Of a DNA stretch of 64,000 nt, positions 3,006-56,904 are shown one piece after another. The number at the start of each line of letters is the position of its first letter. Position 1 is the first letter of the stretch. The notes under the pieces are model-generated. The model was not told the origin of the DNA and ran no database searches. It saw nothing but the letters and a program-made list of their open reading frames with translations. Location of the stretch: NCBI GenBank assembly GCA_038210275.1, contig JBBQWV010000016.1:5447-69446 (forward strand). The letters run 5' to 3'. The stretch comes from Candidatus Kapaibacterium sp. GTDB lineage: Bacteria; Bacteroidota; Ignavibacteria; Palsa-1295. A program made the translations under genes and the position numbers.

Positions 3006-3022
3006 AAGGAATTGTGAAGTGT

Positions 3023-3108: not shown

Positions 3109-4010
3109 TTGTATTTTCAATTCTGGTTCTCGTCCTCCTCTCAGGATGCAAGAGTTCAACTGAGCCTGTAACAAGTTCTGGATCGGGTTCACTGAGCGGT
3201 ACGGTCAAAGCATACGGAATACTTTCTGCTCAGCCGGTCAGTTCATCTGGCGTGGAAGTGGAATTACAAGCGACAAAATACCATGCAATTTCCGATTCCC
3301 TCGGAAATTTTCGTATTGATAATATCCCTGCAGGAGTCTATAATATTATTTTTTCCAAACAGGGATTCGATTCGATGATCTATCCGGTGCATCATCTTAT
3401 TGGAGCAGGGACAGATATTATCAACGATGCGTACCTGATTCAGGAATCGAATGATTCTATTCTTTTCAAAATTGTATCCTCAGTTTATACGGTAAGTATA
3501 ACGAAGTTCATTCATATCATTGATACACTTATTAAGATCGGTACCGGGCACAATGATACGATCATCCGCTCGTTCGATACGACGATCATAACCTATGATA
3601 CAGCGCGAACCCCGGTAAAAATAATTACGACGTGTAATCTCGTAGGAAATCTACTCCCTGATAATATCTATGTCTATAGCTCGCTTGATAGCGGAGTGTT
3701 CCCTAATTCGATCTGCCGCGAAACCAATAATCTTACGATGGACGCATGGCTCACCCAGCATAAAAACGATACATTATTTCATGCAGCTTTCCAATCACCA
3801 AAGATCATCAACGGAGTTTTCTTAGATACACTGTCAAGCGATGTTATCGGGCGAAAACCATTTTCCTTTGAGAGCGGGCAAGTAATTTATATTTATGCCT
3901 GCGGACATTCAAGCACGAACGGTTTACCTCTCCTTGATGGAGAGTATAAACATTTTCTCACAACACCTTACGGACCCCAGGTTGTCAGGTACAGATTTGT
4001 TGTACCGTAA
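3042..4010 (+). CDS. Lipoprotein with carboxypeptidase-regulatory-like (CarboxypepD_reg) β-sandwich domain
   Basis: The signal reads ...RRGIIFSILNFVFSILVLVLLSGC, with a lipobox LSG|C. A segment GTVKAYGILSAQPVSSSGVEVELQATKYHAISDSLGNFRIDNIPAGVYNIIFSKQGFDS matches the CarbopepD_reg pattern. Confidence 0.6.
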   Translation: MLILKVCSLSHIRRGIIFSILNFVFSILVLVLLSGCKSSTEPVTSSGSGSLSGTVKAYGILSAQPVSSSGVEVELQATKYHAISDSLGNFRIDNIPAGVYNIIFSKQGFDSMIYPVHHLIGAGTDIINDAYLIQESNDSILFKIVSSVYTVSITKFIHIIDTLIKIGTGHNDTIIRSFDTTIITYDTARTPVKIITTCNLVGNLLPDNIYVYSSLDSGVFPNSICRETNNLTMDAWLTQHKNDTLFHAAFQSPKIINGVFLDTLSSDVIGRKPFSFESGQVIYIYACGHSSTNGLPLLDGEYKHFLTTPYGPQVVRYRFVVP

Positions 4011-4013
4011 TTC

Positions 4014-4595
4014 ATGAAGTCAAGCACGCAACATGAAGAATTTCTGCAATTGCTGGAGCCGGTATACCCGAGGCTTTCACGATATTCGCTTGCTATTACC
4101 AGAAATGTTGAAGAAGCAAAAGATCTGACAAGTGAAACAGTTCTCACGATGCTTGAGCAATTTGAGAGTTTGAGAACAACCGAAAATTTTGGCGGTTATC
4201 TTTTCAAAATTGCCTCACGTCTTCATAAGCGTAAACGGTATCGCGAACGCTTTCGGATTTCTTACGATCGGCAGACTGCAGAGATGCAAGAAGATTTAAC
4301 TCCTTCACCGGAGCAAGCTGCAGAAATTGCACTCGTGATGAGAGCACTTGAAAAGCTTCCACCCAAGATGAAAGATACTCTCGTGCTCTTTGAAGTTGTC
4401 GATCTCTCTCTCGAAGAGATCCGTGATATTCAAGGGGGAAGCTTAAGCGGTGTTAAAAGCAGATTAAAACGCGGGCGCGAGATGGTTCAGCAAAACCTTG
4501 GAATTAAGAATACTATGAGGATTAATATTATCGGGAGAAGACCCGAAAATTTTAATCCTGCATTAAAAAAAGCAGAAGATTACTATGCTCTCTAA
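4014..4595 (+). CDS. RNA polymerase ECF-type sigma-70 factor
   Basis: σ70 region 2-like sequence (EAKDLTSETVLTMLEQFESL...YLFKIASRLHKRKR) and region 4-like sequence (LPPKMKDTLVLFEVVDLSLEEIRDIQGGSLSGVKSRLKRGRE). Size 193 aa. Confidence 0.9.
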   Translation: MKSSTQHEEFLQLLEPVYPRLSRYSLAITRNVEEAKDLTSETVLTMLEQFESLRTTENFGGYLFKIASRLHKRKRYRERFRISYDRQTAEMQEDLTPSPEQAAEIALVMRALEKLPPKMKDTLVLFEVVDLSLEEIRDIQGGSLSGVKSRLKRGREMVQQNLGIKNTMRINIIGRRPENFNPALKKAEDYYAL

Positions 4596-5628
4596 TAACT
4601 ATCAAAATGCTATCAACTCGCTTCGTAACCGCGAAGCACAGCCTTCGTTCGAAGAGATTCGCGAACTTGTATTAGCCGAAAAGCCCAAGCGTAAGGCATT
4701 TGGTTTACCGATCTGGACTTATCTCGCCGGAAGCGCCCCTATCTTTCTAGTCCTTGCAATTATTCTCTTGACATCAGCGATGGGGTCAAAGCAGAATCTC
4801 TCACACCTCACCAAATTGCTGCCCATTAAAAGCTTTATTTCACAGCAAAAAATAATTACACCTCAGTTCTTAGCTGTGAAATCATTTGCTTCAAGTTCAT
4901 CTCCAACTGAAACGAGAGATGTACTTCATGTTTTGGAATCTTCAGAAAATCCAATTCAGTTAAGTGAGCGATCAAAAGAAAAACAATCAGTACCAGTTCC
5001 TCCGAAACCAACAGCATCTTCTGAAGTTGAATCTGTGAAAACGACCGACAATAAATTGGATTGGTCGATCAGCCCTTCAGATATTGCCTCCGCAGAGGAG
5101 AATATTTCTTCGACGTTTCATTATTCATTCTTTATTTCGGCAGGTATACCTGCTTCTCAGTGGGCTTTTCGATTTACCGACCTACTTTATGGTTCAGTTG
5201 GGATTAAGAAGCAGTTGAACTCCGCTTCAACTATCGCTTTTGAATTACGCAGAAATACCTTTCTCAAAAAATATACTGCACATATATCAAGCTATCATGA
5301 CACAGTCTTAACAGTTGGGGGACAAACGTATCACAATTCAATCGGCGTATTTACTTCAGCATCTGCTGAAATGGTCAACAATGTTATCTCCTTTGGCGTA
5401 GGTTACCGTTTGAATTTTTCGCGGATCGGAGCATTTACCCCCTTTGGCGAGTTTGGTTTAGGAGCAAGTACACAAGGCGCTCTAACATCTGAAATTTTAG
5501 GGATACAGTATTCCTTAAACTCCCTTATCTCCCTAGAATTTCTCATTCGAAGCGATCAATTGTTTTCTCGGGGCTCATCTCCTCAGTCAAGCTTTAATAT
5601 TAATGTCGGGGCGAGTTATCCTTGGTAA
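4585..5628 (+). CDS. Membrane protein translationally coupled to the ECF sigma gene (11-nt overlap); candidate anti-sigma factor with OMP-β-barrel-like C-terminal region
   Basis: A ~45-aa cytoplasmic N-terminus is followed by a single TM helix (PIWTYLAGSAPIFLVLAIILLTSAMG), then a Ser/Pro-rich linker. The C-terminal β-rich region ends ...NINVGASYPW. Position and coupling are typical of anti-σ genes. Confidence 0.5.
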   Translation: MLSNNYQNAINSLRNREAQPSFEEIRELVLAEKPKRKAFGLPIWTYLAGSAPIFLVLAIILLTSAMGSKQNLSHLTKLLPIKSFISQQKIITPQFLAVKSFASSSSPTETRDVLHVLESSENPIQLSERSKEKQSVPVPPKPTASSEVESVKTTDNKLDWSISPSDIASAEENISSTFHYSFFISAGIPASQWAFRFTDLLYGSVGIKKQLNSASTIAFELRRNTFLKKYTAHISSYHDTVLTVGGQTYHNSIGVFTSASAEMVNNVISFGVGYRLNFSRIGAFTPFGEFGLGASTQGALTSEILGIQYSLNSLISLEFLIRSDQLFSRGSSPQSSFNINVGASYPW

Positions 5629-6415
5629 GCTGCTCAGCCTTCTCGCGATCTTTGGATGAATAAGAGATGAAGATGTCAGACATTTGGAGTGCAAAGATAC
5701 GGATTAAAGGCTAATACAGGTTTCAAATAGCTTAAAATAAGATTTGAAAAGTTACAAGGTTGATGATTCCAATATATTCCCGAGATCGAGTATTGCTCGG
5801 AGCTTAGGGGTCCGCCATCGTCAAAGCTAAGGTTACATGGATAGTTCAAAATAAGTCATATCAACGAAAATAAATTTTATTTTCTTAATACAATGTTTTA
5901 GAATAAGTTATGGGGTAAATGGAGTGTCATTCTAAAAAAAAAAAGCGAAAGGATTAGGATTTTCAACATTATTGTTGTATTTTTGTTTTTGTATTTCAGG
6001 GTTTGCCCCCATGTTTCTTTGAAATTTGATTAGTTTGCTTATCGTCAGTAGCCGCAGATAAACGCCTTATCCTTAAACTTTGCCAAGGATCATGCGGCTT
6101 TCAAGACAAATAGTTTGCGCTGAAAACCTAAAAATCAGCACAAAATACCATGTAAGAGTCTTTGCCACTTTGCCGGCGAAACTCACTTTATCGTTGAAAA
6201 TAACGTGAAATCAACAAAAATGAAGGAAGCCTTGCTCTGTCAAGTCACTTTAATAGTCTCTACGAACCTGTTTGACTGTAACAAAATAGGGTTTCGTGAG
6301 TTATTAACAAACAGGAGTGGTGTTTTATGGGGCATGATGGTACTTAATGTTGATTAGTGGTAAAATTTTGATATTTTTTAACTTAATTGCTTTGAGAATC
6401 CCGTTTCATAAAATT

Positions 6416-7984
6416 ATGCCTTTCTGCGTCGGAGCAATGCTCATGGCTCTTGTATCTGTGGGATTTTCTCAAATCCCAAGGCAGATCAGCTACCAGGGCT
6501 TGTTGATCTCACCGTCAGGTGTTCCGATTTCTAATGGGAAGCATGTGTTGAAGATAAGTTTATACATTTCCGCAATAGCGGCTACCGATATTTACAACGA
6601 ATCGATCGAGACACAAACAAATAATGGACTTTTCACCGTCATCATCGGTGGCAATGCGCCTATTCCTGCTTCAATAGATTTTCGAGATCAGTATTGGTTG
6701 GGCGTAAGCGTTGATGGAGGTGCTGAAATGGCACCTCGTACAGCGCTGACATCTGTTCCGTATGCGCTTCATGCTGAAGTGGCGGATAGGGTTTCTTCTA
6801 TTTCGCCAGATGCAAAAGGTGTGGTGACCAGTATTAACGAAGTTGACGGACCGATTCGTATCATCGGAGACAGCACAGCAAAAGTTACACAAAAAGGTCA
6901 AGTCATCACGATTTCCTCAATGCCTGACGGAGTCCAGACTATCCAAAATGTTGACGGCACAATTTCAATCCAGAATTCAAGCGGACCGATCGTGACATTA
7001 GGAATCAACGACACATCTATCACCAACAGCAAACTTGCAAGGAATTCCGTATCAACGATAAATCTTCAGGACGCTTCCGTGACTGGGGCGAAGATCAACC
7101 AGATGGGAGCATTTACGAATCAGGTTCTCAAATGGGATGGTACAAAGTGGTCACCGGGAAAAGATGATACAACGGCGATCAAACCCGGAACAGGAATTGT
7201 AATTACCCAAAATGCGAATGGCGATAATGTGATCTCGACAACGCTGATCGGCTTGCCTCCAGGCACCACAGGCGCGACTCTTCGCTATGATGGAAATAAC
7301 TGGATATCCAATACTTTTCTTTATAACGACGGCGCACGTATCGGAATCGGCACAACGACTCCTGGTGCGATGCTTGACATGGCAGGAAATTTGATGATCA
7401 GCAATAACGGAAACGCGTCGAGTGAATTGCGAATTCAGGAGCCTTTAGTGGGCGGACAGAATAAATTTTACACGTCATTCAGATCGCCGAATTATATTCG
7501 TAACATCGACTATCTCCTTCCACCGGCATTACAGCCGAATGATGCAGTGATGTCTGTGAATAGTCAGGGAGTGATGACTTGGGTGAATGTACTGCCTCCG
7601 AGTGTTGCCGTTCCATTTAATCTCGTCACCTCAGCAACCAATACCGGGCAAGACTTACAAGTAGGGGATGGATCAAATCTTCACCCGACCGGAACCGGTG
7701 TCGTCAGTGCAAATAAGCTTTCAGGATCAACGCAGGGTGGCAGTTCTTATGCAGGCAGAGTTGTAGTACCGCAAGGTACGACATCGCTAAAAGTGAACCT
7801 CGCGCCATCAGTCGGCTGCGCTCCGAATTCCAGCGTAACTGTCTCACAATTCGATGCGCAGGGTTACAGCAATATCGTTGCGACGATGGTGACGGAAATA
7901 ATTCAGGATTCATTCACCGTGCAATTCTCGGCTTCATATCCGACGAACACAGGATTTATCACGTACTTGATCGTCAATCCATAA
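6416..7984 (+). CDS. Secreted tail-fibre-like repeat protein (paralogue 1). ORF track starts at 6347; 6416 (MPFCVGAMLMALVSVGFSQ signal peptide) is the likelier start
   Basis: N-terminal module ISYQGLL...NGLFTVIIGG...SVPYALHA. Tail-fibre-like motif ARIGIGTTTPGAMLDMAGNLMISNNGNASSELRIQ...YLLPPALQPNDAVMSVNSQGVMTW, the same module as in the giant gene. C-terminus ...FTVQFSASYPTNTGFITYLIVNP. Confidence 0.65.
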   Translation: MPFCVGAMLMALVSVGFSQIPRQISYQGLLISPSGVPISNGKHVLKISLYISAIAATDIYNESIETQTNNGLFTVIIGGNAPIPASIDFRDQYWLGVSVDGGAEMAPRTALTSVPYALHAEVADRVSSISPDAKGVVTSINEVDGPIRIIGDSTAKVTQKGQVITISSMPDGVQTIQNVDGTISIQNSSGPIVTLGINDTSITNSKLARNSVSTINLQDASVTGAKINQMGAFTNQVLKWDGTKWSPGKDDTTAIKPGTGIVITQNANGDNVISTTLIGLPPGTTGATLRYDGNNWISNTFLYNDGARIGIGTTTPGAMLDMAGNLMISNNGNASSELRIQEPLVGGQNKFYTSFRSPNYIRNIDYLLPPALQPNDAVMSVNSQGVMTWVNVLPPSVAVPFNLVTSATNTGQDLQVGDGSNLHPTGTGVVSANKLSGSTQGGSSYAGRVVVPQGTTSLKVNLAPSVGCAPNSSVTVSQFDAQGYSNIVATMVTEIIQDSFTVQFSASYPTNTGFITYLIVNP

Positions 7985-8044
7985 AAATTTGAGTAGTGTA
8001 ATTTAAATTTATTTGTGTATTTACTTAACCTAACCATACAAACA

Positions 8045-9931
8045 ATGAAACATAGTAAACTCCTTAGGATGGTCGCATGGCTTGCCGTGTTGAGCATCGG
8101 AATGATCGGAGAAGTATTCGCTCAGGTACCATCGCTTGTTACCCAACAAACGAGGTTATCAACGGGCGGACCGACTCCAAGTTACGTCCAACTCCGTGCA
8201 AAAGCAGGCGTTGGAACAAGTACTGATGCCTACTTCTGGGATCAGGCACCTGCACCGACAGCCAATACGAATTACTCGCTTTGGTTGGACGCTAATAACA
8301 ATATCGTTCGAAGCAATCCGTTCGGACCGGGACAGTCAAATTACTTGATGCAGGTCAATGCAACAGGTACTGGTCTGCAATGGGTGAATCCTGCGAATTT
8401 AACCACTCTTGCAGGAGATATCATCGGACAGACTGGTGACGATTCAGTGAACGTCGGACATAGCGGTTTAAATAACCGTTTGATTCTGGGTATCAATAAT
8501 GCTACAGGATATGACGGAACGAGCTTGATCGCCATTGACCGTGGAGGTACGAACAGCAATGCAGTTCCGACTGCAGGTGCTATTGCTTACGGTGACGGTA
8601 CAAAATATATGTTCAATGCTGTGGGTACGACGGGTCAGATTCTTGCTTCAACCGGAGCGGGTGTTCCGATCTGGGTGAATTCACCTTCACTGCTCACATT
8701 TGATAACGGCTTGACTAAAACACTGGATAATGTTCAGTTTGGCGGACCACTTGTGAAGGCAACGTCAGTTGATCAGGCAACATTCGGTTTGACGTTCACC
8801 AATGGTACACTTGACCTTGGTAGTGCAGTCGGAACTTACGATATCAATATTGATCTCGGAAATTCAGCGACTCATAACATGAATATGAAGAACATCGCTG
8901 TTGATCTAACTGCTCCGAACATCCTTGCACTTGATGCAGCGGGCAATGTTCGTACCCGTACGTTCGGATCAATTATTACTGCTGATAACGGTTTGATCAC
9001 CAACGGCTTAGGGTTGGTATCAATGGGCGCTCCTGCAACAGGAGGCGCATTGCTTTTAACCGATCGTTTTATTGGTTTGGCTACACATAAGTTGACTTAT
9101 GAAGGTGCCGGTGATTTCAATATCGGTGACGGTACATCTGCTCAGAACATTACTTTGGATCCGAGCGCAACCGGTTCTACAAACTTCAAAAATTTGGCGA
9201 ATCAGGCTGCTCCTGCGGCAACGGATAGGTTCGTCATGATGAGCACCGGATCGGATAAAGCTTTCACGCGCACACTTGCATCGCTTGTGAATGCTGATAA
9301 CGGTTTAGTCGTAGATAATACGGTTACTCCAGGTACAAGCACAGTTCAGCTTGGTGCTCCGGCAACAGGCGGCGCATTGCTTTTATCAAACCGGTTTATT
9401 GGACTTCGTGGATTTGCATTGAACTTTGACGGAGACGGAAGCATCAATATGGGCGCTTCGGGTAACGTTAATGTGAATGTCAATACCGGTGCAACTGGCA
9501 ATATGACGCTTCAGGGTACGACCTTGAGTGCTGGAGCTGGAACACCGAAATTTGATAACATGGCATTTGTTGACGGAACTACGAACAATGTTCGTATTGC
9601 GAAGACAACAGATATCACGACCAATGCGACACCGACGATGTTTATAACCGTCGATGCCACAGGTAATATCACAAAGTCCGTCAGCCCAACAACAGGGTTT
9701 GCTAAAGGACAGATCGCAGGAAACGGAAGTTATCAGTACACCTCACCTGTAATAGCTACGGGTATCGTTGCCGGAGCTTCAATCACTTGTACGGTACAAA
9801 ACATGACCGGTATAACAGGTACGATTCTTGTGCAGGTAACAGGTGTCAATACTGCTGCAGGTACATTTACGGTTGAGACATCAGAGAGTATTCAAAACGG
9901 CTCGTTTATTAACTACGTCGTAATGAATTAA
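8045..9931 (+). CDS. Secreted tail-fibre-like repeat protein (paralogue 2). ORF track starts at 8015; 8045 (MKHSKLLRMVAWLAVLSIGMIGEVFAQ) is the likelier start
   Basis: Signal peptide, then Gly/Thr/Asn-rich β-repeat sequence. Repeated LLL(T/S)(D/N)RFIGL motif (GAPATGGALLLTDRFIGL / GAPATGGALLLSNRFIGL). C-terminus ...GTFTVETSESIQNGSFINYVVMN resembles the C-termini of 6416 and 11003 proteins. Confidence 0.65.
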   Translation: MKHSKLLRMVAWLAVLSIGMIGEVFAQVPSLVTQQTRLSTGGPTPSYVQLRAKAGVGTSTDAYFWDQAPAPTANTNYSLWLDANNNIVRSNPFGPGQSNYLMQVNATGTGLQWVNPANLTTLAGDIIGQTGDDSVNVGHSGLNNRLILGINNATGYDGTSLIAIDRGGTNSNAVPTAGAIAYGDGTKYMFNAVGTTGQILASTGAGVPIWVNSPSLLTFDNGLTKTLDNVQFGGPLVKATSVDQATFGLTFTNGTLDLGSAVGTYDINIDLGNSATHNMNMKNIAVDLTAPNILALDAAGNVRTRTFGSIITADNGLITNGLGLVSMGAPATGGALLLTDRFIGLATHKLTYEGAGDFNIGDGTSAQNITLDPSATGSTNFKNLANQAAPAATDRFVMMSTGSDKAFTRTLASLVNADNGLVVDNTVTPGTSTVQLGAPATGGALLLSNRFIGLRGFALNFDGDGSINMGASGNVNVNVNTGATGNMTLQGTTLSAGAGTPKFDNMAFVDGTTNNVRIAKTTDITTNATPTMFITVDATGNITKSVSPTTGFAKGQIAGNGSYQYTSPVIATGIVAGASITCTVQNMTGITGTILVQVTGVNTAAGTFTVETSESIQNGSFINYVVMN

Positions 9932-9944
9932 TTTATTTTTCATG

Positions 9945-10000
9945 ATGGGAGCGGTCTTGGCGCCACTGAGCCGTTCCTATCATGAATTTATTTCAGAGTT
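9945..10000 (+). terminator. Putative intrinsic terminator after the 8045 gene
   Basis: Imperfect 15-bp inverted repeat TCATGATGGGAGCGG ... CCGTTCCTATCATGA (13/15 complementary, loop contains palindrome GGCGCC), followed by TTTATTT. Confidence 0.45.
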
Positions 10001-10048
10001 TACAAGAGAGAGAGGGAGCCATTAGTTTGCCAATATCAACACGGCTCG

Positions 10049-10834
10049 TTGAAAAAGAGAGAAACAATTTGTATGTGCGCACTAGCGAAAAATCGAATTG
10101 AAGCTTGTATCATTGGCATTATCACTTTGGTGATGATGCCGATGGTTCTTGCTGCGCAACCAACATCGTCGGCACTTGAAAACCCACCGCCTGTTTCACA
10201 GCGCACTTATACTGCGCCACCGCCGAAGGCGAAACAAGAGACTGTAAGAACTATAGCGATCAACGAAGCTCCAAGACCCTTACCTCAACAAATATCAGAT
10301 ATTGAGCCTCGTATAGAAATTTTAAAAGTAAGCGCCGGAAACCCGGATCATTTATCCGCAGGATTTTATGCTTCCTTTGAACCAAAGACATACGACACAG
10401 TCTTTATTTATGAAGGGGAAACCGATAAGTATGAAGTGATAGGCATTCATGCTAATAAAGAAGTCATACAAGGTGATTCCGGATCAGTTGCAGAAGAGGT
10501 AACCTTTCGGATGAATCACTTCAATGAAAACGATATACCTGTTGCCAACGAGCAGCATACGAAGACGAATTCCATGATCATTCGGACCGGATTTATTCCT
10601 TCACAAGGATTCGGATCCAAGCGATATAGATTTGCTATCAAGCCCGGAAAATTTATTTTGTCCGGCAATTCAATGATCTCCGCATCGGTCCACATGACGC
10701 ACGGAGAGAATATTGGCACCATACTGTGTGCAGTGACAAATATTGATTTTAAGAAAGGGATATTCTATGTCGAGACATCGAATGAAGTCCCGAAGGGAGA
10801 AGATATTAACTGGATCATTATCAACTCGATGTGA
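10049..10834 (+). CDS. Hypothetical secreted protein (start could be 10073, MCALAKN...)
   Basis: N-terminal hydrophobic segment IIGIITLVMMPMVLAAQ, then a Pro-rich stretch. No recognisable domain. It sits between the tail-fibre-like paralogues. Confidence 0.45.
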   Translation: MKKRETICMCALAKNRIEACIIGIITLVMMPMVLAAQPTSSALENPPPVSQRTYTAPPPKAKQETVRTIAINEAPRPLPQQISDIEPRIEILKVSAGNPDHLSAGFYASFEPKTYDTVFIYEGETDKYEVIGIHANKEVIQGDSGSVAEEVTFRMNHFNENDIPVANEQHTKTNSMIIRTGFIPSQGFGSKRYRFAIKPGKFILSGNSMISASVHMTHGENIGTILCAVTNIDFKKGIFYVETSNEVPKGEDINWIIINSM

Positions 10835-11002
10835 TCTGGTTTTAGATTTGCCTTTAAAAAGAGTGTTTGTTTCCCATGTACAGTTTCTTGACATTACGTT
10901 TGCTTTTTAACAAATTGGCGAATTTAGGCTTTTGTGGATAAGCAGTGGAATACGCTGCGCACAATGAACGTTAAATTTGCACAATAACAAAATGCCTCAA
11001 AG

Positions 11003-17000: not shown

Positions 17001-20000
17001 CTGCATCAAACGGATATGTACTCTCATCCTCAACAACTGGTTCGCTTAGTTGGGTAGATGCGACGACTGTTACCAATGATTGGCATTTAATTGGAAATGC
17101 AACCGGATCGGCATGGAATGGCGCAGCAGGAAGTTTCCTCGGAACGACAAGTACTCAGCCATTAGTAATCGCAACAACAAATACGACGACACCACAGCCG
17201 ATCGAATTCTTCACGAACAATACGGAGAAGATGCGGTTGCTGCCTTCGGGTAATTTTGGTATTGGGCAAACTAATCCATCGCAGTTGTTCGAAGTACGTA
17301 ATGGTAATTTCTTGCTTTCAAATTCAGGAGCCTCTGATCAATTACAATTCCAGGGAACAGGGTCAGGTATAACAACCTTCGCAGCAGGTGCACAAGGAGT
17401 AACGAATCTTAACTATACTCTGCCGATCTCTGCCCCTGTTGCGAACTCATTGCTCTATTCTTCAGGCGGTGCGGCAAGTAATTTATCGTGGTCGAATACC
17501 GGAACGGCGGGACAAATTTTAACGATCACCGGTGGAATACCAAGTTGGCAGAATTCCAATACGCTTACTGGCTTTGTACTCTACGATGTAACGACTCCAC
17601 AAAATTCATCTGTTACTCGCACAGATAATTTATTTAATCTTGCTTATGGAGCTGGCGGCAATGATGCGAATGCTGCCGGAGCTGTTATCAGTTCAACAGG
17701 TGGAGCTACCAATAGAAGCGCGACAGCTTTATCATTGACTTCAACTGCGACAGGCACAGGCACTTCAACAGGGTTAAGCATAACTTCATCAGGTGGTACA
17801 ACTCAAACAGCTATTTCCGCGACAGGAAATATCAATTTATTGAGCGCTGGCGGTTTGGCAAGCAGTTTCAGTCTGCAGAATCCGGCTGGTACTTTTGCGA
17901 CAAGTTTTTCTGCAGGTGCGCAGATCGCAAATATTGGTTACACACTTCCTACTGCCGGAGCAGCAGCGAATGGATATGTTCTTTCGGCAACAACAACGGG
18001 AGTTCTGAGTTGGAGCAATCCAACTGTTCTTCTTAGTAATAATTACTGGACTCTTTCAGGTAATTCCGGAACGACAGCATATAACGGCGCAACAGGCAAC
18101 TTCTTAGGTACAACGGATGCACAGCCGTTAGTTCTTGCAACAACGTTTACTGCAACACCGCAGCCGATAGAGTTCTTTGCGAATAATTTGGAGAAGATGC
18201 GCATTGCTGCAAACGGCAATGTCGGAATCGGTCAGACAAATCCGTCTCAGCTTCTTGAACTTAAAAATGGTAATCTGTTATTTTCAAATACTACTGGCAC
18301 TGCGGATCAGTTACAACTTCAAGGTACGGCGGCAGGTATAACGACTTTCGCTGCAGGCGCACAAGGAGCAACGAATCTTAATTACACACTTCCGATCCTA
18401 ACTCCGGCGGCAAGTTCATTGCTCTACTCATCCGGCGGTGCAGCAAGTAATTTATCGTGGTCGAATACCGGAACGGCGGGACAAATTTTAACAATCACAG
18501 GCGGAATACCTTCGTGGCAGAATTCAAATACTCTGACAGGTTTTGTGCTCTATGATGTGACTACTCCTCAGAATGCATCTGTAACACGCACTGATAATTT
18601 ATTTAATATTGCCTATGGTGCAGGCGGCAATGATGCGAATGCTGCGGGTGCAGTAATAACTTCTGTCGGCGGAGCCACGAATAGAAATGCAACAGGTCTT
18701 TCTGTGACAACAACTGCAACCGGCACCGGTACCTCGACAGGATTGAATATAACTACTGGTGGTGGTACAACAAATTATGCTGCAACATTCAGCGGCGGCA
18801 ATGTTGGAATCGGTCAGGTTGCACCGACGCAATTGCTTGAAGTCAAGAATGGTAATCTTCTACTTTCAAATTCCGCGACTGCCGATCAGTTGCAATTTCA
18901 AGGTACAAGTACTGGCCTGAGCACATTCGCAGCCGGAGTGCAAGGAGCGAATACTTTTAACTACACGTTGCCGATCACTACGCCATCAGCAAATCAAGTC
19001 TTGACCGCGACGGCAGTTTCCGGTGCAGGTCCTTTTGCAGTGACATTGGGGTGGCAAAATGCTTCAGGCTCATTTGTGAACTACAATACAGCCACAGTAC
19101 AAAATTCTGCAGTTATCACATCACCGAATTATCTCTTTAATGCAGCCTACGCCGCAAGTGCCACAGCAAATAATGCACTTGGCGGAGTGATTACATCTGC
19201 AAGCGGAACGTCGGCTGCAACAAATGCAACGGGTCTTGCTGTGACCGCGACTGCAAATGGAGCAGGTACCTCAACAGCATTGAATGTTACGGCAGGTGGT
19301 GGTACAACAAATTATGCTGCATTATTTAATGGCGGAAATGTTGGAATTGGTCAAGCCACTCCATCGCAATTACTTGAAGTGCGAAACGGAAATCTTTTGC
19401 TTTCAAACTCAGGTTCAGCCGATCAGTTACAATTCCAAGGGACAAGCACAGGAATAACGACATTGCAAGCAGGTGCTCAGGGAGTAACAAGTCTTAATTA
19501 TACACTTCCGATCACTGCGCCGGCTGCAAGTTCATTATTATATTCATCAGGTGGAGCGGCAAGTAATTTATCCTGGTCGAATACAGGAAGCAATGGTCAG
19601 ATCCTGACAATTACGGCAGGAGTACCTTCTTGGCAGAATGCTTCGGCTCTCAACGGATCGTTCGTTCAATATGATGTTACCTCAGCGCAAAATGGATCAG
19701 CGACACGTACGGATAATCTTTTTAATGTTGCGTATGCTGCAGGTGCAAGTGATGTGAATGCGGCAGGCGCAGTAATAACTTCTGTCGGCGGAGCCACGAA
19801 TAGAAATGCAACAGGTCTTTCCGTGACAACAACTGCAACCGGCACCGGTACCTCGACAGGATTGAATGTAACTGCAGGTGGTGGCGGAACAAATTATTCC
19901 GCATTATTTAATGGTGGTAATGTGGGTATCGGACAAGCAACGCCAACACAATTGCTTGAAGTCAAGAATGGTAATCTTCTACTTTCAAATTCCGCGACTG

Positions 20001-23000
20001 CCGATCAGTTACAATTCCAGGGTACGAGTACTGGCTTAAGCACTTTCCAAGCCGGTGTTCAGGGTGCAAATACATTTAATTACACGCTACCAATTACGAC
20101 TCCGACTGTAAATCAAGTTCTTACTGCAAGTGCAGTCAGCGGTGCAGGTCCTTTTGCCGTTACTCTTTCCTGGGCAGCTGCAGCGGCGGCAGGATCGTAT
20201 GTTAATTATAACACTGCTTCGATTCAAAATACCGCTGTTATTACTTCTCCAAATTACTTATTTAATGTAGCCTACGCCGCAAGTGCCACAGCAAATAATG
20301 CACTTGGTGGAGTGATTACTGCTGCAAGCGGAACATCTGCGGCAACAAATGCGACCGGACTTGCAGTTACTGCAACAGCAAACGGAGCGGGCACTTCAAC
20401 AGGTCTGAATGTCACAGCCAGTGGTGGAACAACAAATTATGCTGCATTATTTAATGGTGGTAGAGTAGGTATCGGCAATGCAACACCGACGCAATTACTT
20501 GAAGTCAAGAGTGGTAATCTTTTACTCTCGAATGCAGGTGCGGCTGATCAGTTGCAATTTCAAGGAACAAGCACCGGAATATCCACATTCCAAGCAGGAG
20601 CGCAGGGAGCAACAAATATAAATTACACTCTTCCTCTTGCTGCTCCTGTTGCCAATAATTATGTACTCACTGCAACGACGGGTGGCGTGATGAGTTGGAC
20701 AGACCCAGCAGCACTTCCTCCGAATGATTGGCATTTAACAGGTAATAGTGCTACGACAGCTTATAACGGAGCTACAGGTAATTTCATTGGTACGACGGAT
20801 GCACAACCATTTGTCTTAGGTACAACATTTACGACAACATCTCAACCGATCGAATTTTTTACGAACAACACGGAGAAGATGCGTTTGCTGCCATCGGGTA
20901 ATCTTGGTATCGGACAGACAAATCCAACACAGCTTCTTGAAGTCCGCAATGGTAATTTACTTCTCTCGAATTCAGCGACTGCCGATCAGTTACAATTCCA
21001 AGGTACGAGTACAGGGCTGAGTACTTTCGCAGCAGGAGTTCAGGGAGCGAATACTTTTAATTACACACTGCCGATCACAACACCGACTGTAAATCAAGTT
21101 CTCACAGCAAGTGCAGTCAGCGGTGCAGGACCTTTTGCCGTTACTCTTTCCTGGGCAGCTGCAGCGGCGGCAGGATCGTATGTAAATTATAATACTGCTT
21201 CTGTACAGAATACCGCTGTTATTACTTCTCCAAATTACTTATTTGATGTTGCTTACGCAGCAAGTGCTACGGCTAATAATGCACTCGGTGCGATCATCAG
21301 TTCTTCAAGCGGTACATCTGCGGCAACCAATGCAACGGGTCTTGCTGTCACTGCAACAGCAAATGGAGCAGGCACTTCAACCGGTTTAAATGTTACTGCC
21401 GGTGGTGGTACAACAAATTACGCAGCATTGTTCAATGGCGGTAGAGTAGGTATTGGAAATGCCGCCCCGGCGACCGGGCTCGATCTTTCCTCTGATTTTG
21501 CAACACGTGAATTGAATTATGCAACTGCAATGCCTGCTTCAAGCAATGACGTGAATTTTGACGCATCAGGAAATCTGATAAGTCTTGTACGTATTGCAAA
21601 TGCTGCTGCACCATTTACTATAACCGGTTTTGCCGGAGGGCGGAACGGTAAGATGTTAACGGTATATAATGCTACGGGTCAGGCATTGTCTATTGCAAAT
21701 CAAAGCGCATCGAGTGTAGCCGCAAATAGAGTTATTACCGGAACGGCCGCAAACGTTGTCCTTCAATCTGGAAGTAGTGTTGATTTTAAATACAGCCCGA
21801 CTGATGCTCGCTGGTTCATCGCTTCACTGAATGACCTCAGTCAGCTGCCCGGTATGTTTGTAAATTACAATACTGCAACTGCTCAGAATACGGCAGTAAT
21901 AACTTCTGCAAATTATCTTTACAATATTGCTTATGCTGCAAGTGCTACAACCAATAATGCACTTGGGGCTTTAATTACTTCGGCAAGTGGCACCTCCGGT
22001 GCTACAAATGCAACGGGACTTGGTATTGTTTCTACAGCAAATGGAGCAGGAACATCCACCGGTTTGAATGTAAATGTGAGTGGCGGCACGACGAACTATG
22101 CAGCATTATTCAATGGTGGTAATGTCGGAATAGGGCAAACCGCTCCAACACAGTTGCTTGAAGTCAAGAACGGTAATTTACTTCTTTCAAATTCCGCAAC
22201 TGCTGATCAATTACAATTCCAAGGAACAAGTACTGGTTTAAGCACTTTCCAAGCCGGTGTACAGGGAGCGAATACTTTTAATTACACACTGCCGATCACA
22301 ACGCCGACTGTAAATCAAGTTCTCACAGCAAGTGCAGTCAGCGGAGCGAGTCCTTATGCTGTAACTCTTTCATGGGCAGCAGCAGGTGGAGGATCATTCG
22401 TTAATTATAATACTGCTGCGGTTCAGAACAGCGCAATTATTACTTCTCCTAATTATCTGTTTAATGTTGCCTATGCTGCAAGTGCAACAACGAATAATGC
22501 GTTAGGCGGAGTCATCAGTTCAGTCGGTGGAACATCAGGAAATACAAATGCGACAGGTCTTGCTATTACTGCAACAGCCCATAGTACCGGAACATCTACA
22601 GGATTGAATGTTAACGCTAGTGGTGGTACAAATAATTATGCAGCACTCTTCCAAAGTGGTAGGGTTGCCATCGGTAATGCAGCACCTGCGACAGGACTTG
22701 ATCTCAGTTCTGATTTTGCAACTCGTGAATATAATTATGCTACCTCACTTGTTGGTACAAAAAATGATGTAAACTTTGACGGCGCAAATAATTCGATCAG
22801 CTTTGTTCGCCTTGCTACAGCATCAGGTGGATTTACTTTGACAGGTTTCACCGGTGGTCAAAACGGAAAACGACTAACGATCTATAACGGAACTGCGCAA
22901 ACGATGACGATTGCCAATCAAAGTGCAAGCAGTGTTGCTGCGAATAGGATCATCACAGGAACACAGGTGAATATTCCTATTCCAACGGGCGGATCTTGCG

Positions 23001-24757
23001 ACATGGTTTATAGCACAACAGAATCACGCTGGATTATAAGTTCGACAAGCGGAGTATCAGGATGGCTCTATACCGGCAACAGCGGATTAACCGACAACGT
23101 TAATAACTATCATGGCACATTAGACGATATACCGATTCGATTCGTTGCAGGCGCTTCCGGCGCTCCGAGTACAAAGATGTTGCTTGATATTAATGGCAAC
23201 TTGTTATTCGGACCGAATTCCGGAGCAACAAGCTTCCCTGCAGGAACGGCAGGTCGTTTAGCATTTGGTGATAATCTCAATACAGTCCGATTAGGAAGCG
23301 TACCCACATTCGGAACGCGTATATTTAATATGATAGATCAAAGTGCTGTACTTCGCGTGTGGCGTTTCAATAGCAATGCTGGTGGTACTGATCCAGCGAT
23401 TGAATTGATTGGCGGTACGAATGACGACCAAGGCAATTCTGCCAATCATTGGTGGGACGTTTATGCAACAGGTACTCCCGGTGTTGCTGGAACCGGAACC
23501 GGTGGAGGTTACGGTGAGCATATGGCATTCCGTCGTCGTACCGGTGCACATGATTCTGAGTATCTGAGTGTTTTCGCAGGGGGCAATATTGGAATCGGTA
23601 ATAATGGAGTGAATGGTGTCGCAACTCCGGATACTCGATTGGTCGTAAGACAAGTTGACGGTGCAACAAGCACTATTTCAAATCTTGTATCTTTGTATCA
23701 CTCTTCCAGCGCGGGAAATGGCATTACCAGTGGTTTTGGATCAGGACTTGTTTTTAAAGCGGAGGATACAACGGTAGATAATCAGGAAATGGCACGAATT
23801 GCAGCTATTTGGACAAACACCGTTGATGCGAGTCGCACAGGAGCGTTGACTTTCTCCACTGTGAATAACGGTCTTGCCGAAGCTGAAAGAGTCCGTATTT
23901 CGGGTGTTGGGTATGTTGGTGTTGGAACTACCACACCTGCCGTCAGCATGGACATCAATGGAGCGCTGGCAACGGAGGCGACAAATATTGCTCTCTCGAA
24001 TGGTACAAATAATAACTTAGCACTAACGAATCAATCTTTTGCACGAATTACTGGACCAACAGCAGCATTTACTGTTACCGGTGTTGCAGGTGGTGTGGAT
24101 GGACAGATACTGAGGATTGAAAATACTACTGCTCAGAATATGACGATCTCTCATAGTAGCGCTTCATCCACCGCAGGTAACCGTATTTATTCTCCAAGTG
24201 GATCCGATGTCGTTCTCAAAGGACAGAATTCTTCAGCTGAGTTGATCTACGATGCGACCAATACGCAATGGGTTTTGACAAACTCGAATTCAAACCAGAT
24301 TACCGGTCCTATCGGCTCTATTGCGTATATGACAAAAGCAGCAGATCAGAGTGTGACCAATTCGGCAGTGCTTGCTAATGACGCAGATATTTCATTCTCA
24401 ACCAATCCGAATGAAACATGGGAGATTCATGGTGAACTTCATGCAGATAATACTGTAGCAAACTCGAATATCAAGATTGCATTTACTATACCCGCTGGTT
24501 CCACAATGAAAATTTATTATACCGGCATCCAAGATGGAGGAGTCTCAGCTGGTGCATCAATCCTCACTGCCTCTGGTGTTGCAAAAACTATTACGATTGC
24601 TGCAGGTGCTGTTTCGACTTATATCCAACTTCATGGAATTGTCAGGAATGGCGGAACTGGTGGCACAGTGCAACTCAAATGGGCACAAGGAACTGCTAAT
24701 GCCCAGTCAACCATCCTTCGTCAGGATTCTTTCATCAAAGCAGTGCGCGTGAACTAA
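11003..24757 (+). CDS. Giant (4,584 aa) secreted tail-fibre-like repeat protein; surface fibre/adhesin candidate
   Basis: Single uninterrupted 13.7-kb ORF with signal peptide MILKKFSVFYVLFFICLTATIVRGQA. Roughly twenty copies of module A (NVGIGQ.(S/A)P(S/T)QLLEVRNGN(L/F)LLSNSG.ADQLQFQGTS.G.TTFQAG.QG..N.NYTLP...). These interleave with module B (NYLFNVAYA...GATNRSA.GLAVTATATGTGTSTGLNVTAGGG.TNYAALFNGG) and module C (ASAWNGAAGNFLGTTSTQPLVVATTNTTTPQPIEFFTNN.EKMRL). A distinct C-terminal ~1,100 aa follows. Confidence 0.85.
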   Translation: MILKKFSVFYVLFFICLTATIVRGQASMQRGVRISNANGNIVTIQTGIAPQTYSLVLPLTSNPSLTTASVLYGLGTGNLTWTDITGVADGWLLALKTSGGNLVPTWIDPTTIGAWALNGNATISAWNGSAGNFLGTTSAQPLVVATTNSTPQDIIFMTGNTEKMRLLGSGELGIGLSPVSGRLLDVGGTSGTANIRFTSLSGADLNTALAATDGLVIADNNGDLTKRSPSILGTVLAGSYVQYDLAGTQNISATRPDYLFNVAYANAASDANAAGAVITSASGATNRSAAGLAVTATATGTGTSTGLNVTAGGGATNYAALFNGGRVGIGQSTPSQLLEVRDGNLFLSNSGTASQLQLQGTGTGLSTLQAGAQGTNIFNLTLPTSTPSANQVLGVNAISGAGPYAITLGWQNIISGSFVNYNTTSVQNSGVITSPNYLFNVAYAGSATTNDALGAVISSVGGTSGATNATGLAVTATANSTGTSTALNVTAGGGSTNYAALFNGGKVGIGQSAPTQLLEVRNGNFLLSNSGTADQLQFQGTSSGITTFQAGAQGATNINYTLPTSASAANGYVLASTTGGVMSWTDPSALVSSNYWSLAGNAIASAWNGAAGSFLGTTSTQPLVVATTNTTTPQPIEFFTNNAEKMRLTSAGNLGINQTNPSQLLDVANGNILLSNSGTAGQLQFQGTSSGITSLQAGAQGANTYNVTFPITTPAANQVLGVSAISGAGPYSIALGWQNVFSGSFVNYNTASAQNTAIITSPNYLFNVAYTSSATTNNALGAVITSVGGTSGATNASGLAVTATANGAGTSTGLNVTASGGTTNYAALFSGGNVGIGQVSPTQLLEVRNGNFLLSNSGTADQLQFQGTSTGITTFQAGVQGATNINYTLPTAAAVANGYVLSSTTGGVMSWSDPSSLIASNYWSLTGNATASAWNGAAGNFLGTTSTQPLVVATTNTTTPQPIEFFTNNVESARIASTGEFGIGLTPTAGRLLHVAGTGGTANIRFNSLSGADLNTALAATDGLVIADNNGDLTKRSPSVLGTALTGSYVQYDISSQQSISVTRANNLFNVAYNAAATDANAAGAIISSVGGATNRSANGLAVTATATGTGTSTGLNVTAGGGGTNYAALFSGGNVGIGQATPTQLLELRNGNFLLSNSGSADQLQFQGTSTGITTFQAGVQGATNINYTLPISAAAANNYVMASTTAGVLSWVDASTITNDWHLIGNATASAWNGAAGNFLGTTSTQPLVVATTNTTTPQPIEFFTNNTEKMRLLPSGNFGIGQTNPSQLLEVRNGNFLLSNSGSADQLQFQGTSTGITTFQAGVQGATNINYTLPISAAAANNYVMASTIAGVLSWVDASTITNDWHLIGNATASAWNGAAGNFLGTTSTQPLVVATTNTTTPQPIEFFTNNTEKMRLLPSGNLGIGQTNPSQLLEVRNGNLLLSNSGSADQLQFQGTGAGTTSFLAGAQGVTNLTYTLPISAPSANSLFYSLGGAASNLSWSNAGSNGQILTVTGGVPSWQNASILNGNFVLYDVTTPQNLSVTRTDNLFNVAYAAGANDANAAGGVVTSVGGATNRSATGLSVTATATGTGTSTGLNVTSGGGGTNYAALFNGGNVGIGQAAPTQLLEVRNGNLLLSNSGSADQLQFQGTSTGLTTFQAGVQGATNINYTLPISAAAANNYVMASTTTGTLSWVDVSTITNDWHLIGNATGSAWNGAAGSFLGTTSTQPLVVATTNTTTPQPIEFFTNNAEKMRIASSGNVGINQTNPSQLLEVRNGNLLISNSGSSGQLQLQGSSTGASTFLAGSQGAVNINYTLPVSSPSANSLLYSSGGATNNLVWSNTGSNGQILIVTAGVPSWQNSNTLTGFVLYDVTTPQNSSVTRTDNLFNLAYGAGANDVNAAGAVISSTGGATNRSATALSLTSAATGTGTSTGLSVTASGGTTQTAIIATGNINLLSAGGVASNLSLQNPAGTFASSFTSGTQAANINYTLPISVAASNGYVLSSSTTGSLSWVDATTVTNDWHLIGNATGSAWNGAAGSFLGTTSTQPLVIATTNTTTPQPIEFFTNNTEKMRLLPSGNFGIGQTNPSQLFEVRNGNFLLSNSGASDQLQFQGTGSGITTFAAGAQGVTNLNYTLPISAPVANSLLYSSGGAASNLSWSNTGTAGQILTITGGIPSWQNSNTLTGFVLYDVTTPQNSSVTRTDNLFNLAYGAGGNDANAAGAVISSTGGATNRSATALSLTSTATGTGTSTGLSITSSGGTTQTAISATGNINLLSAGGLASSFSLQNPAGTFATSFSAGAQIANIGYTLPTAGAAANGYVLSATTTGVLSWSNPTVLLSNNYWTLSGNSGTTAYNGATGNFLGTTDAQPLVLATTFTATPQPIEFFANNLEKMRIAANGNVGIGQTNPSQLLELKNGNLLFSNTTGTADQLQLQGTAAGITTFAAGAQGATNLNYTLPILTPAASSLLYSSGGAASNLSWSNTGTAGQILTITGGIPSWQNSNTLTGFVLYDVTTPQNASVTRTDNLFNIAYGAGGNDANAAGAVITSVGGATNRNATGLSVTTTATGTGTSTGLNITTGGGTTNYAATFSGGNVGIGQVAPTQLLEVKNGNLLLSNSATADQLQFQGTSTGLSTFAAGVQGANTFNYTLPITTPSANQVLTATAVSGAGPFAVTLGWQNASGSFVNYNTATVQNSAVITSPNYLFNAAYAASATANNALGGVITSASGTSAATNATGLAVTATANGAGTSTALNVTAGGGTTNYAALFNGGNVGIGQATPSQLLEVRNGNLLLSNSGSADQLQFQGTSTGITTLQAGAQGVTSLNYTLPITAPAASSLLYSSGGAASNLSWSNTGSNGQILTITAGVPSWQNASALNGSFVQYDVTSAQNGSATRTDNLFNVAYAAGASDVNAAGAVITSVGGATNRNATGLSVTTTATGTGTSTGLNVTAGGGGTNYSALFNGGNVGIGQATPTQLLEVKNGNLLLSNSATADQLQFQGTSTGLSTFQAGVQGANTFNYTLPITTPTVNQVLTASAVSGAGPFAVTLSWAAAAAAGSYVNYNTASIQNTAVITSPNYLFNVAYAASATANNALGGVITAASGTSAATNATGLAVTATANGAGTSTGLNVTASGGTTNYAALFNGGRVGIGNATPTQLLEVKSGNLLLSNAGAADQLQFQGTSTGISTFQAGAQGATNINYTLPLAAPVANNYVLTATTGGVMSWTDPAALPPNDWHLTGNSATTAYNGATGNFIGTTDAQPFVLGTTFTTTSQPIEFFTNNTEKMRLLPSGNLGIGQTNPTQLLEVRNGNLLLSNSATADQLQFQGTSTGLSTFAAGVQGANTFNYTLPITTPTVNQVLTASAVSGAGPFAVTLSWAAAAAAGSYVNYNTASVQNTAVITSPNYLFDVAYAASATANNALGAIISSSSGTSAATNATGLAVTATANGAGTSTGLNVTAGGGTTNYAALFNGGRVGIGNAAPATGLDLSSDFATRELNYATAMPASSNDVNFDASGNLISLVRIANAAAPFTITGFAGGRNGKMLTVYNATGQALSIANQSASSVAANRVITGTAANVVLQSGSSVDFKYSPTDARWFIASLNDLSQLPGMFVNYNTATAQNTAVITSANYLYNIAYAASATTNNALGALITSASGTSGATNATGLGIVSTANGAGTSTGLNVNVSGGTTNYAALFNGGNVGIGQTAPTQLLEVKNGNLLLSNSATADQLQFQGTSTGLSTFQAGVQGANTFNYTLPITTPTVNQVLTASAVSGASPYAVTLSWAAAGGGSFVNYNTAAVQNSAIITSPNYLFNVAYAASATTNNALGGVISSVGGTSGNTNATGLAITATAHSTGTSTGLNVNASGGTNNYAALFQSGRVAIGNAAPATGLDLSSDFATREYNYATSLVGTKNDVNFDGANNSISFVRLATASGGFTLTGFTGGQNGKRLTIYNGTAQTMTIANQSASSVAANRIITGTQVNIPIPTGGSCDMVYSTTESRWIISSTSGVSGWLYTGNSGLTDNVNNYHGTLDDIPIRFVAGASGAPSTKMLLDINGNLLFGPNSGATSFPAGTAGRLAFGDNLNTVRLGSVPTFGTRIFNMIDQSAVLRVWRFNSNAGGTDPAIELIGGTNDDQGNSANHWWDVYATGTPGVAGTGTGGGYGEHMAFRRRTGAHDSEYLSVFAGGNIGIGNNGVNGVATPDTRLVVRQVDGATSTISNLVSLYHSSSAGNGITSGFGSGLVFKAEDTTVDNQEMARIAAIWTNTVDASRTGALTFSTVNNGLAEAERVRISGVGYVGVGTTTPAVSMDINGALATEATNIALSNGTNNNLALTNQSFARITGPTAAFTVTGVAGGVDGQILRIENTTAQNMTISHSSASSTAGNRIYSPSGSDVVLKGQNSSAELIYDATNTQWVLTNSNSNQITGPIGSIAYMTKAADQSVTNSAVLANDADISFSTNPNETWEIHGELHADNTVANSNIKIAFTIPAGSTMKIYYTGIQDGGVSAGASILTASGVAKTITIAAGAVSTYIQLHGIVRNGGTGGTVQLKWAQGTANAQSTILRQDSFIKAVRVN
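14456..15325 (+). repeat. Two tandem 435-bp units (14456-14890, 14891-15325), ~95% identical, inside the giant ORF; a further degenerate unit starts at 15326
   Basis: Direct comparison shows long identical runs, e.g. gggataacaactttccaagcaggggtgcaaggtgcgacgaatatcaattacacgcttccaatttcagctgcagc at 14519 and 14954. The units encode LLEVRNGNFLLSNSGSADQLQFQGTSTGITTFQAGVQGATNINYTLPISAAAANNYVMAST(T/I)AGVLSWVDASTITNDWHLIGNATASAWNG... Confidence 0.85.
18640..22440 (+). repeat. Dispersed near-identical direct repeats inside the giant ORF (e.g. ~18650 vs ~19790; ~20102 vs ~21083 vs ~22300)
   Basis: A ~100-nt stretch gcagtaataacttctgtcggcggagccacgaatagaaatgcaacaggtctttc.gtgacaacaactgcaaccggcaccggtacctcgacaggattgaat recurs ~1.14 kb apart. 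A ~75-nt identical stretch ...gcaagtgcagtcagcggtgcagg.ccttttgccgttactctttcctgggcagctgcagcggcggcaggatcgtatgt recurs 981 bp apart. Confidence 0.8.
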
Positions 24758-31519: not shown

Positions 31520-31529
31520 AATGATATAT

Positions 31530-56902: not shown

Positions 56903-56904
56903 CT

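Follow-up and report, generated by a model that had tools for sequence, protein, structure and literature searches.

A cassette of four consecutive genes, which we call fibA, fibB, p261 and giant, lies on the chromosome of Candidatus Kapaibacterium sp., within the 64,000-nucleotide stretch of DNA that was analysed here (contig JBBQWV010000016.1 of assembly GCA_038210275.1, positions 5,447 to 69,446 of the forward strand; hereafter "the window"). The same cassette occurs in other Kapaibacteria-like Bacteroidota, the phylum in which Kapaibacterium is placed, and we consider it probable that it encodes trimeric surface fibres of the mosaic adhesive trimer (MAT) type that serve in glycan-directed adhesion. 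MAT fibres are chimeric proteins of Bdellovibrio bacteriovorus. They are defined by a signal peptide, a conserved β-rich N domain of ~130 amino acids (aa), a trimeric stalk of intertwined chains and an adhesive tip that varies; an S74 chaperone-protease is present in some and absent from others (Caulton et al. 2024, PMC10769870). Our interpretation is built on homology, domain folds, synteny and an insertion, all of which were observed directly, and from these we infer trimerisation, surface display, sugar binding and adhesion. An earlier note on this DNA, made from the sequence alone, had proposed a family of cell-surface fibres or adhesins made of tail-fibre-like parts, and homology to the MAT fibres supports that proposal. 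It had also not recognised the combination as a described system, but we place the proteins within the MAT superfamily of chimeric fibres or beside it (PMC10769870). The cassette and its parts are as follows.

6416-7984, + strand: fibA, 522 aa in the gene call of the public contig, beginning with a signal peptide
6476-6754, + strand: MAT-type N domain of fibA, aa 21-113
~7337-7438, + strand: the one S module in the short stalk of fibA
7727-7981, + strand: TIP β-sandwich of fibA
8045-9931, + strand: fibB, 628 aa, with a signal peptide and a stalk of its own
9674-9928, + strand: TIP of fibB (hhalign)
10049-10834, + strand: p261, 253-261 aa, with a signal peptide, a proline-rich linker and a conserved middle domain of ~90 aa (orthologue alignment)
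10577-10831, + strand: TIP of p261 (orthologue alignment)
11003-24757, + strand: giant fibre protein, 4,584 aa (translation and module map)
11315-22666, + strand: stalk of giant, 19 S modules by hidden Markov model (HMM) and up to ~22 by motif (local HMM map)
21488-21874, + strand: D domain copy 1 of giant, aa 3496-3624 (local HMM)
22706-23089, + strand: D domain copy 2, aa 3902-4029 (local HMM; AlphaFold2 (AF2) model, pLDDT 75-87)
23957-24337, + strand: D domain copy 3, aa 4319-4445 (local HMM; AF2 pLDDT 82-91)
24320-24754, + strand: tumour necrosis factor (TNF)-like jelly-roll tip of giant, aa ~4440-4584 (AF2 pLDDT 75-91; Foldseek)

Several lines of evidence tie these proteins to MAT fibres. 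The first ~75 mature residues of fibA match the NCBIfam model Bdello_MAT_N (NF053851; E 4e-7, 29.9 bits), and the same model matches 18 of 21 fibA-family proteins, with a best E of 8.6e-10. In the AF2 model of the fibA monomer the N domain is β-rich (pLDDT 80-90) and TIP is also well defined (75-90), and the stalk is of low confidence (<50); a Foldseek search of this model against the PDB returned no match at E <= 1e-3. Scans of the four proteins with Pfam, NCBIfam and PHROGs yielded only Bdello_MAT_N and one weak PHROGs match, to a tail-fibre family, for fibA (E 1e-3). Likewise, searches of the PDB with fibA or the whole giant as single sequences gave no meaningful matches, and profiles alone were effective. 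The profile of the fibA stalk matches the intramolecular-chaperone region of MYRF (E 0.013). The fibA orthologue profile also picked out the chain named "orf16" of PDB entry 9eg4 (E 8.6e-6), by way of a repeated "I.D.aVT..Kia" motif at aa ~170-235 of fibA (window ~6920-7120). Distant relatives of fibA bear S74, C1q, Collar or YadA-head tips. Peptidase_S74 (PF13884) is absent by Pfam from all four cassette proteins, which would therefore be of the non-S74 type, and Pfam found no YadA-type C-terminal membrane anchor in them. Each protein begins with a hydrophobic leader, a feature that had been noted before, and on our reading of the sequence the first mature residue after the predicted leader is glutamine in all four (the junctions are GFS/Q, VFA/Q, LAA/Q and VRG/Q). 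These leaders read as predicted Sec signal peptides of a type common in Bacteroidota.

Similarity to solved MAT structures is seen in the giant protein. In its stalk each S module is preceded either by an A-type module (motif W.L.GN...FLGTT...EFFTNN.EKMRL) or by a B-type module (motif NYNT...NYLFNVAY...NYAALF), and the protein further contains the three D domains, of ~125 aa each, and a non-repetitive C-terminal region. A profile of the C-terminal 704 aa, compared with PDB sequences, matched 8oml (4.6e-12), Bd2133 (8ond, 1e-11), 8on4 (2e-6) and 8ojn (4.5e-5), all of them solved fragments of Bdellovibrio MAT fibres, and the match runs through the stalk motif "...L.F.T...ER.RI...G.VGIGT..P...L.V.G". 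When the same 704 aa were modelled with AF2, two D domains and the tip were predicted confidently (pLDDT 75-91). The top Foldseek match of this model in the PDB is the C-terminal domains of Bd2439 (8onf, E 2.3e-6, probability 1.0), and the next are PLTL (a TNF-like lectin), 4-1BBL and the C-domain of Chlamydia Pgp3, from which we conclude that giant ends in a TNF-like jelly roll.

The module "GIGxxxPxxLLxV...NYTLP" is common to fibA and giant (BLASTP E 1e-10), and an HMM built from the giant copies finds one copy in fibA. It had been thought to occur in fibB as well, but there the S, A, B and D modules have no HMM match, and the similarity of fibB to giant amounts to a marginal 48-aa BLASTP match (E 0.008). 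The S module has no HMM match in p261 either. Within giant the DNA copies of the modules are 60-87% identical and the protein copies are much closer; for example, between the two modules at aa 2975 and 3709 protein identity is 97% and DNA identity 84%, with synonymous (pS) and non-synonymous (pN) differences of 0.59 and 0.02. Because the DNA copies have diverged while the protein has been conserved, the repeats are old and under selection, and the possibility that their expansion is an artefact of assembly can be ruled out. Orthologues of giant in other metagenome-assembled genomes (MAGs) have 1,578-1,880 aa and 3-5 S modules, indicating a stalk expansion of ~2.5-fold in this lineage. A rule by which the number of D domains would equal the three proteins that carry TIP was considered and discarded, since the orthologues have 1-2 D domains. 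In both fibB and giant, conservation among orthologues is very high over the first ~60 mature residues, higher than in most of the stalk, which suggests, from sequence comparison, a functional N-terminal site. An N-terminal domain common to fibB and giant was looked for and not found.

We define TIP as the C-terminal β-sandwich of ~85 aa that is common to fibA, fibB and p261. Alignment of TIP profiles built from orthologues (hhalign) gave a probability of 93.6% and E 2e-7 for fibA with fibB, and 91% and E 1e-6 for fibB with p261; BLASTP of p261 against the C-terminus of fibB also gave E 1e-6. The C-terminus of giant is unrelated to the TIP profiles (probability 0.2-0.3%). Thus the C-terminal motif of ~25 residues that had been noticed in fibA, fibB and giant is part of a real, larger domain in the first two, and giant does not have it. 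Because p261 bears TIP, the cassette comprises four related genes rather than three paralogues and an interloper: the reading frames of the three co-directional secreted proteins and their strand had been described correctly, but their number had not, and the 261-aa protein is not a mere interleaved gene. A Pfam scan of 21 TIP sequences found H_lectin (PF09458) to be the commonest family (4 members, best E 0.0017), and we tentatively regard TIP as H-type-lectin-like. Comparison of the TIP, fibB and p261 profiles with PDB sequences yielded no meaningful match, and matches to pyruvate kinase (E 0.003) were judged spurious. The middle of p261 (aa ~85-175 of the protein encoded at 10073-10831, PGFYASFKP...KEVIQGDS) constitutes a second conserved domain, for which a profile finds no relatives.

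Gene order in the cassette is conserved among related genomes. The order fibA-fibB-p261-giant is kept in seven MAG loci (L002, L003 and L005-L009) at protein identities of 40-75%, and the MAGs that contain fibA orthologues, at 55-76% identity, are labelled Kapabacteria/Kapaibacterium, Ignavibacteriota or Bacteroidota. In six of the seven loci (all but L005) the gene immediately before fibA is of the OmpA family and encodes ~690 aa, and the OmpA-family gene in the window is 66-81% identical to its counterparts in these six (L002, L003, L006, L007, L008 and L009). It is usually preceded by a gene for a PKD/Ig protein of ~977 aa with a C-terminal domain of the type IX secretion system (T9SS); in L003, for example, the two genes together occupy 4305-9342. 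The ~977-aa and OmpA-family proteins may belong functionally to the cassette, for instance in anchoring to the cell wall. The A and S modules of giant follow a MAT N domain in two paralogues, L015 (2,081 aa) and L016 (3,425 aa). Related MAGs also contain tandem arrays of MAT-N genes, four in L019 (4721-13110) and three in L035 (9968-20677), and long single MAT-N genes, in L016 (3,425 aa, 9845-20122) and L037 (3,158 aa, 1-9476). These arrays and large single genes show that the MAT-N family is multi-copy and variable in size in this group.

To judge by analogy with MAT fibres, the cassette products would be exported by Sec and then reach the cell surface, and would trimerise into β-prism fibres that resemble phage tail fibres and are of the non-S74 MAT kind. 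In Bdellovibrio the MAT N domain has been proposed to hold the fibre on the surface of the producer; fibA could be held in the same way, extending a short stalk and a small H-type-lectin-like tip. The fibA-type tip would be presented on other bodies by fibB and p261, and giant would carry, on a very long stalk of ~19-22 tandem modules, a TNF-like tip like that of Bd2439, which binds N-acetylglucosamine. The sugar-binding parts would thus be the H-type-lectin-like tips of fibA, fibB and p261 and the TNF-like tip of giant, and the likely function, again by analogy, is glycan-directed adhesion to other cells or surfaces. Some facts weigh against MAT-type fibres. The Bdello_MAT_N score of fibA falls below the NCBIfam cutoff of 60 bits, and the MAT N domain is found in fibA only; fibB, p261 and giant have other conserved N-termini, in which NCBIfam and local HMM scans found no match of the Bdello_MAT_N type. 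The stalk of fibB and most of p261 have no detectable relatives when their profiles are compared with PDB sequences. Moreover, the stalks were modelled as monomers, with pLDDT < 50, so that trimerisation rests on homology.

A different use of the same parts is conceivable, in which the four products would form one composite, possibly branched surface organelle, comparable to the long tail fibre of T4, which consists of several proteins, or to the branched assembly of tailspikes in phage CBA120. In such an organelle fibA, anchored by its MAT N domain, would together with fibB and p261 dock through TIP onto giant, where the docking site could be the repeated D domains or the conserved N-terminus. 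The strict gene order, the rarity of TIP and the fact that three of the four proteins have no MAT anchor are consistent with this arrangement, as is a Foldseek match between the C-terminal model of giant and the N-terminal docking region of CBA120 TSP4 (7rfv, E 5.7e-5). The segments of the T4 long tail fibre are encoded by four consecutive genes of very unequal size, gp34-gp35-gp36-gp37, and the cassette resembles this set in having four consecutive unequal genes, a comparison by gene layout alone. Linked to this arrangement is the possibility that these uncultured Kapaibacteria capture other cells with the fibres, as predators do. We think a composite organelle unlikely, and continue to favour separate MAT-type fibres.

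It might also be supposed that TIP is not a ligand-binding tip but a signal for sorting or docking, whether as a novel type of T9SS C-terminal domain or as a plug onto a common partner. It is a β-sandwich of ~85 aa that always forms the very C-terminus of the three secreted proteins, which otherwise differ, and the organism has T9SS cargo and a PorE-like gene. The latter encodes a 680-aa protein (44287-46329, + strand) in which PD40 (WD40-like β-propeller) repeats are combined with an OmpA domain at the C-terminus, as in the T9SS component PorE. However, neither Por_Secre_tail nor other models of T9SS C-terminal domains (type A, PF18962, and type B) match any of the four fibre proteins, and TIP has no similarity to a profile of eight local type-A domains (profile-profile probability 0.5%). 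An exhaustive HMMER search of 1.84 billion cluster representatives found 38 proteins that carry TIP at E <= 1e-3, far too few for a general sorting signal, and a search of a word index of 5.8 billion proteins with the TIP profile returned 5 fragments only. Most of the TIP matches that consist of a single stretch end at the C-terminus or a few residues from it. Furthermore, giant has no TIP and yet has the same kind of leader, and the commonest Pfam match of TIP is a lectin family. We therefore regard TIP as a β-sandwich that is rare, restricted in lineage and probably lectin-like, not as a signal for sorting in general, and we hold a role in sorting or docking to be improbable.

The earlier note had further suggested that the cassette might be controlled by a sigma factor of the extracytoplasmic function (ECF) type and an anti-sigma partner encoded next to it. 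The features upstream of fibA are as follows.

125-1297, + strand: 3' part of an OmpA-family gene of ~690 aa with two OmpA-like stretches, running off the window start (Pfam OmpA)
~1300-5860, + strand: lineage-specific insertion of ~4.5 kb (blastn against OmpA-fibA intergenic regions)
1692-3005, + strand: gene in the insertion for a 437-aa T9SS cargo protein (Pfam Por_Secre_tail)
3042-4010, + strand: gene in the insertion for a 322-aa CarboxypepD_reg protein (Pfam CarboxypepD_reg)
4014-4595, + strand: ECF-type sigma-70 family factor, 193 aa (Pfam Sigma70_r2 and Sigma70_r4_2; TIGR02937)
4585-5628, + strand: membrane protein, 347 aa, with one transmembrane segment (open reading frame coordinates)
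5859-6415, + strand: conserved non-coding region upstream of fibA

The two reading frames are real, and their overlap is 11 nt as described. The sigma factor scores 55.4 bits against TIGR02937 (cutoff 42.9) and has regions 2 and 4 only. The 347-aa protein is a putative anti-sigma factor by position, that is, by the overlap and its single transmembrane segment; no anti-sigma domain was matched in it by Pfam or NCBIfam, and a scan of metagenome contigs returned no relatives. When the window was compared by blastn with the OmpA-fibA intergenic regions of L003 and L006-L009, homology stopped near 1287-1299 and restarted at 5859-5901, from which it follows that the ~4.5 kb in between were inserted in this lineage. 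The insertion also holds the sigma gene and the gene for the 347-aa membrane protein. The sigma factor and its membrane partner are therefore not part of the cassette, but arrived with the insertion.

Some observations favour a model in which the sigma factor and a membrane-bound anti-sigma factor sense a signal at the envelope or surface and switch on the fibre genes as a regulon: the pair lies directly upstream of fibA on the same strand, its 11-nt overlap is typical of sigma/anti-sigma pairs, and in L002 a sigma gene 44% identical to this one and a gene for a 352-aa membrane protein lie four genes upstream of fibA. In addition, a TGTAAC hexamer (within the 9-mer GACTGTAAC) occurs twice: at 1398, upstream of the operon that contains the sigma gene, and at 6277, within one of the conserved blocks that precede fibA. 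The pair is missing, however, from the OmpA-fibA junction in six orthologous loci, in five of which (L003 and L006-L009) the insertion as a whole was found to be missing, and in L003, L007 and the JGI contig of P0007 the 10 kb upstream contain no sigma gene. The sigma gene of L002, the sole other one nearby, has a different position, farther upstream by two genes and beyond a 969-aa gene, and its 352-aa membrane partner has no detectable similarity to the 347-aa protein. The shared 9-mer is close to chance expectation for such lengths, and the block that contains it is kept in genomes with no adjacent sigma gene. The motif GAAC-N15-18-CGT, sought as an ECF-type promoter, is absent from every intergenic region searched. 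More plausibly, the sigma gene is co-transcribed with the upstream T9SS cargo and CarboxypepD_reg genes, the latter being separated from it by a gap of 3 nt. Relatives of the sigma factor that are 43-46% identical occur in L038 and L039 with no fibre genes nearby. In these two loci (9929-13871 of L038 and 5680-8401 of L039) each sigma frame is followed by an overlapping or abutting gene for a large protein (1,096 and 669 aa) whose C-terminal domain is of the T9SS type, which is unusual for the partner of a sigma factor. A regulatory link from the sigma factor to the fibre cassette is not supported, and we doubt strongly that the fibre genes form its regulon.

The ~560 nt upstream of fibA contain conserved blocks across four genomes, with ~69% identity and many invariant runs, and this region too is retained in genomes with no adjacent sigma gene. 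Its counterparts are at 9408-10059 of L003, 1775-2426 of L004 and 9390-10041 of L005; identity to L004 and L005 is 69% over ~660-700 nt, and conserved blocks are present in L003. A block at ~6350-6396 reads TAGCTTTG in the relatives, which we take to match the Bacteroidetes -7 consensus. No Rfam family matched the region, its consensus fold is weak, and a scan for promoters of the sigma-70 type and for terminators gave nothing above chance. The non-coding gap that had been reported between the membrane protein gene and fibA is present, and its length depends on the start codon: 718 nt to an ATG at 6347, but 787 nt to the called start at 6416.

Pfam scans of 30 open reading frames across the window, supplemented by PHROGs, were used to assess phage genes. 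Throughout the 64 kb they revealed no gene for a capsid, portal, terminase, sheath, tube, baseplate, integrase or transposase, and no toxin gene, in agreement with the earlier note, which had reported no other phage structural genes, no transposases and no toxin domains and had argued that the fibre genes do not derive from a prophage tail. A degraded prophage or tailocin remnant with surviving tail-fibre genes, which the weak PHROGs match of fibA, the phage tailspikes and R-pyocin fibres that are the best structural matches of its model, and the MYRF and 9eg4 matches of its profiles might bring to mind, is very improbable indeed, given the absence of virion, tail, integrase and transposase genes, a merely slight shift in GC content (the insertion has 0.40 and the cassette 0.45-0.46, the range of the rest of the window), the same gene order in the same chromosomal context with the same non-phage neighbours in the seven MAG loci, Sec leaders on all four proteins, which virion proteins do not have, purifying selection on the repeats of giant, and the lack of adjacent tail-module genes at any locus examined.

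Downstream of the cassette lies a neighbourhood of envelope-glycan genes (25577-34495 and 49795-51084) that encode a GT2 glycosyltransferase, an M50 peptidase, a PMT_2 (ArnT-like) protein, two GT9 heptosyltransferases, an MsbA-like ABC transporter and a Kdo transferase. Other genes in the window encode a DEAD-box helicase and glycine dehydrogenase, and a shikimate-pathway operon (55529-60694, + strand) encodes EPSP synthase, shikimate dehydrogenase, chorismate synthase and a 568-aa fusion of shikimate kinase and 3-dehydroquinate synthase. The genes around the cassette are thus of a chromosomal housekeeping kind, with lipopolysaccharide (LPS), shikimate and glycine-cleavage functions on the flanks.

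The cassette shares many features with MAT proteins. FibA has a signal peptide and a conserved β-rich N-terminal domain; the stalk repeats ("...ERMRI...GNVGIGT..P...L.V.G") are sequence homologues of solved MAT stalks; the adhesive tips are interchangeable, with the TNF-like tip of giant structurally nearest to Bd2439; and there are several paralogues per genome, often in tandem, in a chromosomal, non-phage context. It differs in that one of the four proteins has the N domain, at a score below the cutoff of the Bdellovibrio-specific model, in its fixed four-gene order and in a rare tip common to three members. The published supplementary table includes MAT proteins from several bacteria of the FCB (Fibrobacterota-Chlorobiota-Bacteroidota) group, and giant, at 4,584 aa, is more than twice as long as the largest entry for organisms other than Bdellovibrio, 1,915 aa (PMC10769870). 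Finally, the host is a Kapaibacteria-like member of the Bacteroidota with no known predatory lifestyle.

Other known systems are more remote. For comparison, phage fibres and tailspikes (T5 pb1, K1F endosialidase, the cyanophage Pam1 tailspike and R-type pyocin fibres) differ from the cassette proteins, which have Sec signal peptides and no S74 chaperone-protease, and which are encoded in conserved chromosomal synteny, away from any virion or tailocin genes. The cassette proteins are not significantly similar in sequence to H-type lectins (Helix pomatia agglutinin, discoidin) or to TNF-like bacterial lectins (Photorhabdus PLTL, the C-domain of Chlamydia Pgp3). The giant T9SS surface adhesins of the SprB type are very large, repetitive cell-surface proteins of Bacteroidota, whereas the cassette fibres have neither a type-A nor a type-B T9SS C-terminal domain and their repeats are of different types.

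The cassette opens no new class of system, in that the MAT building blocks were already known; what is new here is a conserved four-gene cassette, a rare tip shared among its members and an unusually long member. The case also calls for caution in reading gene neighbourhoods, since a sigma factor that is adjacent merely through a recent insertion may carry no regulatory meaning. Orthologues of giant range from ~1,600 to 4,600 aa and so offer stalks of naturally graded length, in which the construction of such fibres could be studied. The implication of these observations is that the building blocks of MAT fibres, described in 2024 as prey-recognition adhesins of Bdellovibrio, are also present in an uncultured lineage of Bacteroidota. 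In the literature searched we found no link between MAT-type proteins and Kapabacteria, and no account of predation by these bacteria. For a group that has no cultured representatives, the cassette supplies candidate adhesins and may hint at interaction between cells or at predation.

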